59,474 nt of DNA from an uncultured Erysipelotrichaceae bacterium (GTDB lineage: Bacteria; Bacillota_I; Bacilli_A; RF39; UBA660), in the NCBI GenBank assembly GCA_948439995.1, contig CAOJNP010000004.1, positions 1 to 59,474 of the forward strand, written 5' to 3'. Of this stretch, positions 2-4,971 are shown in pieces. Position 1 is the stretch's first letter. The number at the start of each line of letters is the position of its first letter. The notes beneath the pieces are model-generated. The model did not search any database. It saw only the letters and a list, made by a program, of their open reading frames with translations, and had not been told where the DNA came from. The position numbers were made by a program, and so were the translations under genes.

Positions 2-181
2 CAAGTAAGACAGATTGGATCATGGTATCAAGACGAAGCCTGGTTTGTCTATACTACTGAACCTTGGTTTATACGTGGTCATGAGTTTCTTGGTGGAGCT
101 TGTGTTGGAGTGTTTGCTTTGGGTCATTCTCTTGGTAGTATGTTTTCATGGGCTGGTTTTCGCGTCGTGCTAGCGCTTTAG
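2..181 (+). CDS. DGR target protein, 3' end only (C-type-lectin-like variable C-terminus); truncated by the window start
   Basis: Frame 2 reads QVRQIGSWYQDEAWFVYTTEPWFIRGHEFLGGACVGVFALGHSLGSMFSWAGFRVVLAL*, stop TAG at 179-181. It ends in the GFR motif typical of CLec-fold DGR targets and contains the VR. Confidence 0.85.
   Translation, partial: QVRQIGSWYQDEAWFVYTTEPWFIRGHEFLGGACVGVFALGHSLGSMFSWAGFRVVLAL
41..164 (+). repeat. DGR variable region (VR)
   Basis: Identical to 2941-3064 except at 4 nt (122-123 GG vs AA; 143-144 TT vs AA), all of which are adenines in the repeat copy. Confidence 0.92.
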
Positions 182-186
182 CGCTA
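171..186. promoter_or_regulatory. Hairpin just 3' of the VR/IMH (candidate DGR target-recognition stem-loop)
   Basis: TAGCGC-TTTA-GCGCTA, perfect 6-bp stem with 4-nt loop. It follows the VR and is absent after the TR copies. Confidence 0.65.
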
Positions 187-713: not shown

Positions 714-1100
714 ATGATGAGTAAAATTTATGAAAAATATCTTGCATTAAAAGAAAGTGATCCAGATAAATTATATTTATTTCGTTGTGGAAACTTTTAT
801 ATCTTTTTAGCAGATGATGCTGATTTTATTAATAATTATGTTGTATTAAAACGAACAAAATTTTCAAAAGAAGTGATGAAATGTGGTTTTCCCGTGGGAA
901 GTAAAGAAGAATATTTAAAAGTATTTGAACATCAAAATTTAAAAATTGAAGTAATTGAAAATCCATTGTTGCCAGTAGAAATTAGTGAACGAGAAAAATT
1001 TGTTGTAAATTATTTAAAAAATATAGAAATCAATATGCTTACACCGATTGATGCAATTAATAAATTAAAAGAATTACAGGAGATGTTTTATGAATCATAA
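714..1100 (+). CDS. MutS domain-I-like small DGR accessory protein (MSL type)
   Basis: YLALKESDPDKLYLFRCGNFYIF resembles the MutS N-terminus (FRMGDFYELF). C-terminal NMLTPIDAINKLKELQ resembles the MutS C-terminal helix. GGAGG RBS; overlaps avd. Confidence 0.7.
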   Translation: MMSKIYEKYLALKESDPDKLYLFRCGNFYIFLADDADFINNYVVLKRTKFSKEVMKCGFPVGSKEEYLKVFEHQNLKIEVIENPLLPVEISEREKFVVNYLKNIEINMLTPIDAINKLKELQEMFYES

Positions 1101-1464
1101 AGAAGAAACAAAAACTGTAGAAGATTTAATTATCTATAAGCAATATATTGAATTAATTTATTATACCGAAAATATATTAATGAAATATCCAAAATGTGAA
1201 AGATTTGCATTAGCAAGTACGATTAAAAATGCTACTTATGAGGGAATGCGATGTGTTATAAATGCATTTAAAGAATATAATCGTGATCAAAAATTATCGA
1301 ATTTAAATCATTTAGATACGACTTTAAAAATGATTAAAGTTATGATCAGAGTATCTTACAAAAAAAGATATATTAATGCAAAAAATTATACAGCATGGGG
1401 GAAAAAACTGGCTAATTTGGGTAACTTGCTTGGAGGATGGATGAAATCATGCCTAAAACAATAA
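1090..1464 (+). CDS. avd: DGR accessory variability determinant (Avd-like four-helix bundle)
   Basis: 124 aa with YPKCERFAL and terminal LGNLLGGW motifs; directly upstream of and overlapping the RT gene. Confidence 0.88.
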   Translation: MNHKEETKTVEDLIIYKQYIELIYYTENILMKYPKCERFALASTIKNATYEGMRCVINAFKEYNRDQKLSNLNHLDTTLKMIKVMIRVSYKKRYINAKNYTAWGKKLANLGNLLGGWMKSCLKQ

Positions 1465-2477
1465 GAAATGTTTATGATGAAAAATTAACATTTATTAAAC
1501 TTTTAGAGGCTCATGAACGCGCAAGTAAAAATAAAAAAAATCATAAAGATGTGATTTTATTTGAAATGGATTTAGAAAGTAACATTGCGAATTTATTACA
1601 TAAAATAAAAACAGGAACTTATCGTATGGGGAAATATCATGAATTTTATGTGTATGAACCAAAGCAAAGACTGATTAAAGCACTACCTTATGTTGATCGA
1701 ATTGTGCATCAATGGTATGTAGAAGAATTTATAAAACCATATATGGCACCCCGATTTATTTTTACTAGTTTTGCATGTATTGAAGAAAGAGGTGCCCATA
1801 AAGCAGTGGATTTTTTACAGAAATATATGAGAATAATGAAACGAAATTATGGCAATTATTATATTTTAAAATGTGACATCAAAAAATATTTTTATAATAT
1901 TGATCGTAACATTTTATTTCAAATTTTATCTCGTTATATTTCGGATAAAAAATTACTTGATTTTACAAAGTTATTATTATTTGATGAACCAGAATCTATT
2001 GGAATTCCAATTGGAAATTACACGAGTCAGTATTTTGCCAATATTTATTTAAATGAATTAGACCATTATGTGAAGGAGAAACTAAGAGTCAAATATTATT
2101 TAAGATATATGGATGATTTTATTTTGCTTTGTAAAACAAAAGAAGAAGCAAGAGAATATAAGAAGATTCTTGAAGAATTTCTTTCTTTTAAATTACATTT
2201 AGAATTTAACAAAAAAACTAGATATTATCCAAATAGTATGGGAGTAGATTTTTGTGGATATAAAGTTTTTGAAACACATCGTTTAATACGAAAAAGAAGT
2301 AAAGATAAAATGCGACGTCACATTAAAAAGTGGAATAAAAAGTATCGTTTAGGAACTTTAGATTTAAAAGAAGTAGAACAAAGTTGGAATGCGTGGCTTG
2401 GACATATTAAACATGCAAATTGTTATACTCTTCAAAATCGTTATCATGATTTAATGGAGTTTCGAGACATCTTTTAG
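1449..2477 (+). CDS. DGR reverse transcriptase
   Basis: KCDIKKYF, GIPIGNYTSQYFANIYL (SQ motif of DGR RTs), YLRYMDDF, GVDFCGY. About 342 aa with no maturase or endonuclease domain. Confidence 0.95.
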   Translation: MPKTIRNVYDEKLTFIKLLEAHERASKNKKNHKDVILFEMDLESNIANLLHKIKTGTYRMGKYHEFYVYEPKQRLIKALPYVDRIVHQWYVEEFIKPYMAPRFIFTSFACIEERGAHKAVDFLQKYMRIMKRNYGNYYILKCDIKKYFYNIDRNILFQILSRYISDKKLLDFTKLLLFDEPESIGIPIGNYTSQYFANIYLNELDHYVKEKLRVKYYLRYMDDFILLCKTKEEAREYKKILEEFLSFKLHLEFNKKTRYYPNSMGVDFCGYKVFETHRLIRKRSKDKMRRHIKKWNKKYRLGTLDLKEVEQSWNAWLGHIKHANCYTLQNRYHDLMEFRDIF

Positions 2478-2540
2478 GAAATTTTGTCAAAATCATTTTT
2501 ATTCTTTTAAAAGAGTGATACATTTTTTATGGTGAATAAA

Positions 2541-2768
2541 ATGAATTTATATTATCAAAATGAGACACTTTTTATTGATGTAAATGGTATTTTAGATGAA
2601 GAACATATGAAATATTTAAAACGAAAAATCTTTCGAATTGTAGATGATTATGATATTAATCATATTATTCTTAGAAGTTATCCTAATAATTTAGAATATA
2701 AAAAAATGTTTCAGCAAATAAAAAAAGAATATAATCAAAAATATACGGGATATTTTGTCATAAGATAA
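2541..2768 (+). CDS. Small protein resembling the N-terminal half of STAS/SpoIIAA
   Basis: TLFIDVNGILDEEHMKYLKRKIFRIVDDYDINHIIL parallels the SpoIIAA IRLTGELD...LKQKV...DIRHIVL pattern, but has no DSSG phosphoserine motif. Confidence 0.45.
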   Translation: MNLYYQNETLFIDVNGILDEEHMKYLKRKIFRIVDDYDINHIILRSYPNNLEYKKMFQQIKKEYNQKYTGYFVIR

Positions 2769-2940
2769 TTTAATTTGTCTTTCTTTTATCCCTTAATATG
2801 ATTTTAGTAATATTTTTCTAAATATATAGTATGCTTTTTTCTTTCATGTAGTAAGAATTCTTAGAGTGGTTTCGCAGAAATTTATTAAATTATTTGAAAA
2901 TTTAAATTTTAATGTTATATTTATTAGGGATTACGATAAG

Positions 2941-3064
2941 TGGTTTGTCTATACTACTGAACCTTGGTTTATACGTGGTCATGAGTTTCTTGGTGGAGCT
3001 TGTGTTGGAGTGTTTGCTTTGAATCATTCTCTTGGTAGTATGAATTCATGGGCTGGTTTTCGCG
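2941..3064 (+). repeat. TR1, cognate template of the VR at 41-164
   Basis: 120/124 identical to the VR; all mismatches are at TR adenines. Confidence 0.9.
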
Positions 3065-3237
3065 ATAGTAACTATGATAAATAAAGTTTAAAATTAATTT
3101 ACGAATTAATAAAGAATTGTCATAGAGTTGTAATTCCATTTCTTCGGAATAAATACATTTAATTATTAAAACAAGATTAGTAAAAATATTCGAACTTTTT
3201 GTTTTATATTTTACTTTGTTTCATGGGATTATAACAA

Positions 3238-3361
3238 AGGTTTGTCTATACTGCTCAGCCTTGGTACACTCGTGGTGGTGTGTTTTCAGTCGGCATTGGT
3301 GCTGGAGTGTTTGCCATTCATCCTAATCATGGTAGAGTGGATCTGGCTTATGGTTTTCGCG
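3238..3361 (+). repeat. TR2 cassette
   Basis: Same length and scaffold as TR1; translates RFVYTAQPWYTRGGVFSVGIGAGVFAIHPNHGRVDLAYGFR. Confidence 0.8.
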
Positions 3362-3533
3362 ATAGTAACTATGATAAATAAAGCTTAAAATTAATTTACG
3401 AATTAATAAAGAATTGTCATAGAGTTATAATTCCATTTCTTCGGAATAAATACATTTATTATTAAAACAAGATTAGTAAAAATGTTTGAACTTTTTGTTT
3501 TATATTTTATTTTGTTTCATGGGATTATAACAA

Positions 3534-3657
3534 AGGTTTGTCTCTACTGTTCAGCCTTGGTTTCTCCGTAGTGGTGGTCATTTTATTGGATTGGATGCCG
3601 GAGTGTTTGCCATTGGTCGTGCTTTTGGTAGTGTGGATCCAAACATTGGTTTTCGCG
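3534..3657 (+). repeat. TR3 cassette (downstream spacer diverged)
   Basis: Translates RFVSTVQPWFLRSGGHFIGLDAGVFAIGRAFGSVDPNIGFR. Only ACTATGATAA of the spacer is retained downstream. Confidence 0.78.
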
Positions 3658-3732
3658 GTTTTATACTATGATAATTTAATTATGACAAATAAGTTTAAGG
3701 ATTTAATTCATTTTAGAAGAAAATAAATTCAT

Positions 3733-3768
3733 AAAAAAATAAGGTATAAACAAAATACCTTATTTTTT
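3733..3768. terminator. Bidirectional intrinsic terminator between the TR array and the symporter gene
   Basis: AAAAAATAAGGTAT-AAACAAA-ATACCTTATTTTTT. Confidence 0.65.
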
Positions 3769-3774
3769 CTTTTT

Positions 3775-4971
3775 CTATTCTTTTAATAATTTTTCAATAA
3801 ACATGGTTGATGGAACATCGCCTGTTGCATTTAAACATGTTGCTGGAGCATCAATGAGCCATGCAATAGTTGTTAATAATATATAAGCTGAAGTTGGAAA
3901 ACCAAAAATAGATAATATTAATAATTCACTAATTAAACCACCTGATGGAATTCCTGACATTGCCATGCAAATAAATGTTGCAAGTAAGAGTGTGATTAGT
4001 ATATTTGGAAGTGTAAAGAAATTTTTTCCATAGATTGCGAATAAAAACATTACTTTTAAAACAGTTCCCATACTTGAGCCTTCCATGTGAGTAGCAGCAC
4101 CTAACGACATACTAACACTACTTATTTCGTTTTTCACTTTTAATTTTTTTGCAGCTTCAATATTGATTGGTAGTGTTGCAAGAGAAGAACAGGTAGCAAG
4201 TGATGTAAAAGCAGAACTTGAAATGTGTTTCCAAAGATCTTTTACTCCATTTTTTCCTCTACTTAAAACCGCATATAAACTATAGAATAATGCAAAATAA
4301 ATAACACATGCAATTAAATAAATGACGAGATAAGATGCATAGGAACCGATCAATTCGGGACCCATTTCTGCAATGAGATTTGCAAAGTAAGCACAAATTC
4401 CAATTGGAGCATAATACATAATGATATCAATTACTTTTAGTAAAGCCTCATTTCCACCTTCTAATAATCTTTTTACGGTTTCCCCTTTTTCTTTTGCAGC
4501 AGCAACGCCAAAACCTACTAAGCAAGAGAAAATAATCAGTGGTAATAAATGTTTTCTTGATAATAATTCTGAGAAATCTGAAACAGTAATGGTTTCAACA
4601 ATTTTTTCTTTGATATCAATATTTTCTACTTCTAAGTTTTCAGTTGGTATAGGGTTGTCTATTTTTGGTCTCGCAAGTGAGAGTGTTCCCATCATGAAGA
4701 TAGAACTAATTAAACTTGTTGTTAAAAATACAATAAGTGTTGTGCGTACAATTTTACCAAATTTCTTTCCTGAACCAAATTTTGCAATGGAACTTGATAT
4801 TAAGAAAAAAACAAGCGGTACTACGATGGTAAATAATAAATTGATGAAAATATCTCCTAAGGGTTTGATGATGCTTACTTGTTCTTTTAAGAAAATTCCG
4901 AGTAAACATCCAATTATCATGGCAATAATTAATACAATTGATGATTTCCATTTGATTTTTATCTTTTTCAT
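3775..4971 (-). CDS. Dicarboxylate/amino acid:cation symporter (DAACS/SDF family)
   Basis: Multiple TM helices with motifs KPLGDIFINLL, TCSSLATLP, LGAATHMEG, GIPSGG, LNATGD. Confidence 0.9.
   Translation of the reverse strand: MKKIKIKWKSSIVLIIAMIIGCLLGIFLKEQVSIIKPLGDIFINLLFTIVVPLVFFLISSSIAKFGSGKKFGKIVRTTLIVFLTTSLISSIFMMGTLSLARPKIDNPIPTENLEVENIDIKEKIVETITVSDFSELLSRKHLLPLIIFSCLVGFGVAAAKEKGETVKRLLEGGNEALLKVIDIIMYYAPIGICAYFANLIAEMGPELIGSYASYLVIYLIACVIYFALFYSLYAVLSRGKNGVKDLWKHISSSAFTSLATCSSLATLPINIEAAKKLKVKNEISSVSMSLGAATHMEGSSMGTVLKVMFLFAIYGKNFFTLPNILITLLLATFICMAMSGIPSGGLISELLILSIFGFPTSAYILLTTIAWLIDAPATCLNATGDVPSTMFIEKLLKE

Follow-up and report, generated by a model that had tools for sequence, protein, structure and literature searches.

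Diversity-generating retroelements (DGRs) are commonly taught as one-way systems, in which one protected template gives rise to many variable copies. Can the template itself be rewritten? The question is raised by a locus at the start of a 59,474-nt stretch of DNA (contig CAOJNP010000004.1; hereafter the window) from the assembly of an uncultured Erysipelotrichaceae bacterium (GCA_948439995.1), a small mouse-gut bacterium. Its assembly (1.14 Mb, 27% G+C, 90.6% complete, 52 contigs) is labelled G000 here, and its contigs carry C-numbers. A first-pass annotation had noted that three tandem template cores in the window are poor in adenine (A), and proposed that the templates are themselves products of adenine mutagenesis, overwritten by complementary DNA (cDNA) or by sequence from the variable copies. 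On the whole of the evidence, the best explanation in our view is a multi-template DGR whose A-poor units arose via copy-back and whose array holds recallable versions of a binding site, a reading to which we give a probability of roughly 0.5.

Template units and variable repeats

The locus is a DGR. A DGR-type reverse transcriptase (RT) gene adjoins an Avd-type accessory gene, and a template repeat (TR) forms a pair with a variable repeat (VR) that mismatches it at template adenines. The VR occupies the 3' end of a target gene and precedes a flank that is specific to the target and contains a hairpin (171-186) whose role in homing is predicted, and the template RNA sits in structured flanks that are predicted from the sequence to serve RT recruitment and priming (Table 1). 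The canonical architecture, a single invariant template rich in AAY codons (Y, T or C), was not found: G000 holds ten template units, and those in the window carry only one or two AAY codons each. Three units stand in tandem in the window with a period of 296-297 nt, at least five form an array split over contigs C3 and C49, and two lie on C47. The reading frame is open in all ten (0 in-frame stops, vs 5 and 30 in the other two frames), and their A counts range from 13 to 23 per 120 nt. For the three window cores we reproduced the counts of 19, 18, and 16 A per 123 nt given in the annotation; the A content is 40% in the inter-core spacers (347 nt) and 37.6% in the whole window. Contigs of sequencing runs from four studies tile the window array, so it is not an assembly artefact. 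Separately, the two-unit array on C47 (L104 1812-2503) is unlinked to the RT and stands directly beside a tRNA-Gln gene.

Unit 1 explains the VR next to the DGR. As had been stated, it contains exactly two AAY codons, AAT at 3022 and at 3043, and both are changed in the VR (AA>GG at 3022-3023, AA>TT at 3043-3044). These are the sole differences between the two, and the four mismatches all fall on the 19 A of the core (chance 4.3e-4). The VR on C37 combines three donors, with positions 1-30 drawn from unit 2, 31-46 from a C3 unit, and 47-120 from a C49 unit. Nine mismatches are at A and one is elsewhere; this sole non-A mismatch corresponds to an allele of unit 2 (3258 G>A) that is present in other samples. 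In a copying model, the cost of the C37 VR was 4.0 with mismatches at A free, compared to 9.5-11 with C, G, T, or no base free. Similar A-only relationships were found in relatives described below. The VR of the congener G001 equals its third downstream cassette with ten mismatches at A and no other, the VR at the more distant locus L031 derives from two of six TRs with seven and two mismatches at A and no other, and the 3' 59 nt of one VR version in the congener G009 come from an A-rich master TR with eight mismatches at A and no other. The latter genome carries two VR versions, one derived from the master with A-only differences and the other a mosaic of four donors. An expression site that is a mosaic of several copies, as in cassette-switching systems, was thus seen in the C37 VR (three donors), the L031 VR (two), and the G009 VR (four). 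As a separate observation, the two G009 versions stand on either side of a run of N inside the VR (L013, reverse strand, ~3520-3790).

Contigs from other mouse-gut samples extend this pattern; here assembled contigs were compared, and stretches that they did not cover were not counted as evidence. The upstream flank of a VR and the downstream flank of the C24 VR each abut a unit-2-like core in these contigs, and the DGR-adjacent VR of sample X4 matches unit 2 exactly over 44 nt. Since a single RT serves many units (one copy was found in the G000 assembly by tblastn), a VR can be rewritten from different units. The possible target genes are numerous: about 17 paralogous surface-protein gene ends share a C-terminal domain, many of them at contig breaks, with paralogous target ends on C8, C10, C12, C15, C17, C18, C23, C24, C25, C29, C35, C37, C40, and C44. 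Only four paralogous ends (C4, C15, C24, and C37) have a VR-type flank or a match to a unit. Overall, multi-template use is well supported, and a DGR in which one RT, many template RNAs, and several VRs work together is in our view very probable. Judged from these comparisons, some of the transfers at least passed through an RT step, as the A-only differences show, and we infer that all units are transcribed and used.

The units also share a covarying RNA scaffold of three helices, in which the core is closed off by P1, with P2 immediately 3' of it and the small hairpin P3 last. Over 22 units from seven genomes, 94.7% of the cells were paired, vs 79% in shuffles (0 of 500 reached the observed value) and 44-54% when the pairing was slid, and 15 of 26 pairs showed compensatory change with both sides altered. 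These units had been chosen by a motif search that found a hairpin after them, so that the conservation of the search motif itself is by choice and weighs against taking it as support. Duplex energies compared with shuffles were uninformative in this A+T-rich sequence, and covariation counts were therefore used in their place. Eight of the ten G000 units are among the 22; of the other two, unit 3 has the 5' strand of P1 only, and one C3 unit is cut by a contig end. Units 1 and 2 and six others elsewhere in the genome would each be a self-contained template RNA gene. A compact, covarying scaffold of ~235 nt in a natural multi-template design is directly testable for DGR engineering.

That the extra units are decaying TR duplicates or assembly chimeras without function appears very improbable. 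Unit 3 does lack the downstream scaffold, and contigs break at VRs with 55-nt overlaps, as such an origin would have it. Against this stand the lack of any in-frame stop in ten of ten units, a core length that is fixed in 50 of 55 cassettes of G009, the compensatory changes in the scaffold, the presence of the array in contigs of four studies, and A-only VR matches to cassettes other than the first.

Related arrays and ancestral adenines

Seven of ten congeneric genomes contain an RT orthologue (79-88% identity) within an identically ordered set of genes. Six of these have at least five template-like cassettes after the RT, and the seventh, on a 2.6-kb contig, shows one. The cassettes are A-rich in two species (G001 and G006) and A-poor and VR-like in five. 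In the RT tree, the genus forms one clade (100/99) and G001 and G006 form a pair (99/98), with the remaining branching not resolved. The largest array belongs to G009, where 55 cassettes span 12 kb of a 237-kb contig; 50 of them are exactly 122 nt long. Only one of the 55, the frameshifted one, contains in-frame stops, whereas the two remaining frames hold 59 and 229 over all 57 units, the VR and master included. G009 also holds an A-rich master TR with many AAY codons and the full scaffold, in the canonical slot between the VR and a gene for a MutS domain I protein (MutS_I). Fifty-two of its 55 cassettes lack both P3 and the 3' strand of P1 and therefore cannot be independent templates; if they act at all, they must do so through recombination with scaffolded units. 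One candidate from this survey, a 55-mer shared by the start and end of a G003 contig, was set aside as a TR-VR match and attributed to assembly overlap.

Outside the genus, relatives with 48-67% RT identity mostly have the textbook layout, with a VR and a single TR ahead of the RT at 19 loci. The TRs of these canonical outgroups contain 27-40 A per 120 nt and many AAY codons. At L031 (RT 61%), six TRs of graded A content lie upstream of the RT (L031 6816-9000), which may represent an independent or an earlier stage of template multiplication. To reconstruct the ancestral template, we retained the ten of 19 two-unit loci whose pairs had at least five mismatches at A and at most two others (nine were dropped), and the ten canonical TRs yielded 33 ancestral-A columns. 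Units that were not exactly 120 nt long (122 nt in G009, where 5 of 55 were dropped) or that lacked the terminal CGN were left out of the counts, and the window cores were compared over 120 columns, i.e., the cores minus the first codon.

Fifty-two of these 120 columns vary among the three window cores (19, 19, and 14 at the first, second, and third codon positions). The differences are enriched at the reconstructed adenines, as predicted if the templates had undergone adenine mutagenesis: 26 of the 33 ancestral-A columns vary vs 26 of the 87 others (p=2.6e-6). When only codon positions 1 and 2 are considered, the contrast is 26/33 vs 12/47, and with all ten G000 units it is 31/33 vs 40/87. 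A further argument of the annotation fared less well. It had read variable columns that change at codon positions 1-2 next to a fixed T as traces of an ancestral AAT, and although the quoted triplets are present in the alignment, they carry no such meaning. The third base is unchanged in 13 of 27 variable codons and is T in 12 of these, and third-position T is equally common in invariant codons (24/39, 62%, vs 54/81 in variable codons); the fixed T is therefore a general property of the cores and unspecific as an AAT signature.

The loss of adenine goes beyond that seen in ordinary VRs. Canonical TRs keep A at 83% of the ancestral-A columns and their VRs at 48%; the corresponding values are 64% and 59% in the A-rich arrays of G001 and G006, respectively, and 29% in G000 and 35% in G009. 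The bases that substitute for A in G009 (125 G, 96 T, and 40 C) match the A-to-N spectrum of ten real TR/VR pairs (58 G, 44 T, and 23 C), and such replacement runs counter to the A+T bias of the genome. The units would be A-poor because ancestral AAY codons were replaced, differently in each unit, by VR-type codons. The change is also confined in space. Units of one array share 92-100% identity in their 170-nt downstream flanks and 74-86% in their cores (the exception is unit 3, with a degenerate downstream element, ~80%), and in the extreme case one mismatch in 169 flank bases accompanies 21 in 122 core bases. For the orthologous template slot in G009 and G003, the flanks are likewise 83-96% identical and the core matches at 77 of 122 positions. 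Conserved flanks around diverged cores indicate that some process alters the cores and spares the flanks.

In G009, two cassettes depart from the A-rich master at five A and no other position apiece, 11402 over positions 51-122 and 18409 over its 3' half. Over its whole length, cassette 18409 differs from the master at 12 A and seven other positions (Fisher 2.6e-5). The 3' polarity of the A-only differences in these two cassettes is as expected of retrohoming. Moreover, within near-identical segments shared between units, 11 of 15 mismatches in G000 and seven of nine in G009 involve A, a base that makes up 13-16% of the sequence.

Might the assembly then lack an A-rich master TR for which the G000 units serve as silent, VR-like targets or decoys? 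G009 provides a model for such an arrangement, with its AAY-rich, scaffolded master, 52 of 55 cassettes without the downstream scaffold, and parts of two or three cassettes derived from the master with A-only changes; and the G000 assembly, which is 90.6% complete in 52 contigs, has two arrays that touch contig ends. The annotation had named a search for a separate A-rich master among its checks. Similarity searches found none in the 90.6% complete G000 assembly, with no A-rich copy among the matches, and the canonical slot (620-700) is empty: the template and scaffold segment is cleanly missing compared to G009 and G003, alignment with these two genomes is confined to the final ~40 nt ahead of the MutS_I gene, and the slot is missing in G001 as well. 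G000 as assembled therefore contains no master TR from which every copy departs solely at adenines of the master. In addition, unit 1 explains the VR (four differences at A and none elsewhere), eight units carry the full scaffold, and in G009 the master explains parts of only two or three of 50 cassettes. We consider silent targets improbable, if less so than decay or chimerism.

Several observations weigh against write-back. Between the G000 units, 46-48% of the differences lie outside ancestral-A columns, and 14 of the 52 variable columns are third codon positions. The A-rich sister arrays have a 1.8-2.0-fold excess of differences at ancestral-A columns vs 3.0-fold in G000, so that part of the G000 excess is ordinary divergence at binding-site codons; the ancestral-A columns are ligand-binding codons, and selection is thereby confounded with mutagenesis. 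With the G009 cassettes taken as targets of copying, the mean cost was 14.4 with A free, vs 12.8 with T, 15.3 with G, and 16.8 with C. The copying model gave no general A signal, and we make no claim that adenine drives the differences between cassettes taken together. At the columns where the master has C, G, or T, 43%, 29%, and 19% of the cassettes, respectively, also differ. Between samples, the unit-3 locus varies at six core positions, of which two are A (unit 2 differs at one position, and for unit 1 none is listed). The template units have neither the VR flank nor the hairpin, and no direct instance of transfer into a TR locus was seen among the contigs compared between samples. Finally, the 62 nt of the C15 VR that are identical to a unit leave all ten A unchanged, and exact A-intact segments such as this one and the 44-nt stretch of sample X4 also fit non-mutagenic exchange. 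Stretches of this kind fit non-mutagenic exchange, selection, or a context dependence of misincorporation; for the Bordetella enzyme, misincorporation is reported to be context-dependent (PMC12875486).

Many of these points would be accommodated by a multi-template DGR without write-back, in which the units are old paralogous templates. Selection for templates that are defined and mutate little would have removed AAY codons through ordinary substitution, pieces would be exchanged only among the units, and the near-identical spacers would be maintained by concerted evolution or scaffold constraint. Such a history would account for the roughly half of differences that fall outside ancestral-A columns, the similar but weaker excess in the A-rich arrays, the strain-level changes in unit 3 that are mostly not at A, and the lack of a general A signal with cassettes as targets. 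It also fits cores that are mosaic across arrays (the core of unit 3 has its closest match in a C47 unit, with 91% identity vs 75% in the flanks) and the structural constraint on parts of the spacers. It fits less well with ~70% of the ancestral A being replaced by G, T, or C against the bias of a 27% G+C genome and yet with a VR-like A-to-N spectrum, or with 170-nt flanks whose identity reaches 99%, and not only within the helices, around cores that differ by 14-26%. The two G009 cassettes that each differ from the master at five A and nowhere else are hard to obtain by point mutation. We regard this history as possible, though clearly less likely than the multi-template DGR with copy-back.

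Of the proposal that cDNA or VR sequence overwrote the templates, the enrichment at ancestral A and the loss of A beyond that of VRs therefore stand, while about half of the differences lie elsewhere and the direction of transfer is a matter of interpretation. Write-back is plausible but unproven. We see an even chance that the A-poor state arose from diversified sequence re-entering the template loci over the core only, and both the direction and the mechanism of such copy-back are inferred.

Proposed mechanism and known systems

In the multi-template DGR with copy-back, the single RT, together with Avd, would copy the template RNAs, and the cDNA would replace the VR of several paralogous surface-protein genes. 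Individual VRs would be rewritten from different units, 3' end first, giving mosaics with A-to-N changes at the few remaining A. Copy-back might proceed through cDNA annealing at a homologous locus without a hairpin, or through homologous exchange with VRs. The VR-specific 3' flank, which is common to the VRs on C15 and C24, is absent after ten of ten template units. In a reconstitution study, loss of the stem-loop is reported to have reduced but not abolished retrohoming, and the cDNA is proposed to anneal to single-stranded target DNA (PMC12875486). Because homing persists without the stem-loop, copy-back into a hairpin-less locus is conceivable. The array would then hold fixed, pre-tested versions of the binding site that are open to recall, and presumably serves as an archive. 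That the retroelement writes diversified and selected receptor sequence back into its template library, and so forms a heritable memory of binding-site variants, is the most tentative part of this proposal and one that we rate as doubtful.

The prototype DGR, that of Bordetella phage BPP-1, resembles the present locus in its RT and Avd, its template RNA flanked by structured RNA, cDNA errors opposite template A, and replacement of a 3'-terminal VR in a receptor gene, with a hairpin after the VR (see PMC12875486 and PMC6182149). BPP-1 is generally described as having one invariant, AAC-rich TR between avd and the RT gene. In contrast, ten units occur here in three places, downstream of the RT or unlinked to it, an accessory gene encodes a MutS domain I, change has been far more rapid in the cores than in their flanks, and AAY codons number one or two per window unit.

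Elements that combine multiple templates with several target genes have been described before. A DGR survey reports loci with two TRs and one atypical locus with six TRs, 91 TR-VR pairs, and few A-to-N substitutions (PMC6642488); its passages on these loci describe no tandem arrays of tens of units, A-poor templates, or VRs that are mosaics of several templates. In Treponema denticola, the TR differs between strains, with 81% identity between two types (PMC4891356), and templates are similarly not immutable over evolutionary time. Each genome there has one TR and the variation lies between strains, unlike the array within one genome found here. In the literature examined, which did not extend to supplements or subscription papers, we found no report of tandem arrays of tens of templates or of A-poor or rewritten templates.

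Arrays of partial, in-frame, non-expressed copies that feed a mosaic expression site are well known from pilE/pilS and vlsE, where they act by DNA recombination without an RT. Here the A-only differences imply an RT step in at least some transfers and most G000 units carry an RNA scaffold, in contrast to those systems. Within a genus of small gut Bacilli, a template appears to have been turned into an array of up to 55 in-frame cassettes. If templates are indeed rewritten, the directionality rule of DGRs has an exception. Random search would then be combined with stored solutions, which would bear on how gut commensals track changing ligands, and the array would constitute an adaptive store of protein specificities, built by a diversity-creating enzyme and recallable into several surface-protein genes by retrohoming.

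Organization of the locus

The features of the locus are listed in Table 1.

Table 1. Features of the DGR locus in the window (positions in nt)
Feature	Position	Strand	Details and basis
Target-gene 3' end, cut by contig start	1..181	+	Open frame 2..181; VR = 41-163
VR-specific 3' flank with G+C-rich hairpin	164..186	+	Stem 171-176 / 181-186; read and folded
Accessory gene, MutS domain I only, 128 aa	714..1100	+	Pfam MutS_I, E 1.3e-11
Avd accessory gene	1090..1464	+	Pfam bAvd, E 9.2e-21
DGR reverse transcriptase	1437..2477	+	Pfam RVT_1, E 2.7e-18; YMDD and IGNYTSQ in translation
Small open reading frame, 79 aa, no Pfam family	2529..2768	+	Copies 42-54% identical, same place in 7 congeners
Template unit 1	2926..3160	+	P1 2926-2937/3126-3137, core 2941-3063, P2 3072-3080/3116-3124, P3 3138-3142/3145-3149
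Template unit 2	3223..3458	+	P1 3223-3234/3424-3435, core 3238-3360, P2 3369-3377/3414-3422, then P3
Template-like unit 3	3519..3672	+	Core 3534-3656; P1 5' strand only, without downstream P2/P1/P3 partners
Terminator-like hairpin and T run closing the array	3741..3768	+	Sequence reading

The VR stops 18 nt short of the stop codon of the target gene. Positions 1-55 of the window match the end of C28 exactly, and that contig contains a 525-aa open frame whose N-terminus has a hydrophobic stretch. As a check for the C-type-lectin / FGE-like fold of DGR target domains, this 525-aa part of the target protein was compared with Pfam, and no family matched. In the RT, we take the IGNYTSQ motif to be a hallmark of DGR enzymes. 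The order of the MutS_I gene is conserved in seven congeners, and in all seven congeners that have the RT the DGR includes a protein consisting of MutS domain I alone, a mismatch-binding accessory adjoining a system that makes mismatched heteroduplexes. The small open reading frame (ORF) of 79 aa always lies between the RT and the first cassette. Two other ORFs, at 2866-3084 and 3538-3726, were rejected as genes and are only the open VR frame of units 1 and 3.

An Rfam search of the locus returned nothing relevant, promoter-like sites were not above chance (11 vs 9.6 expected), and the promoter and terminator scan found no terminator. A conserved non-coding stretch lies between the target gene and the MutS_I gene. 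At 230-360, three G+C-rich hairpins are conserved in G009, G003, and G001, and the sequence around them is not; these could be terminators or part of target recognition. At the far end of the array, the 7-nt loop of the terminator-like hairpin (3748-3754) is reverse-complemented in contigs of X4, X6, and X7, a small inversion of the loop between strains.
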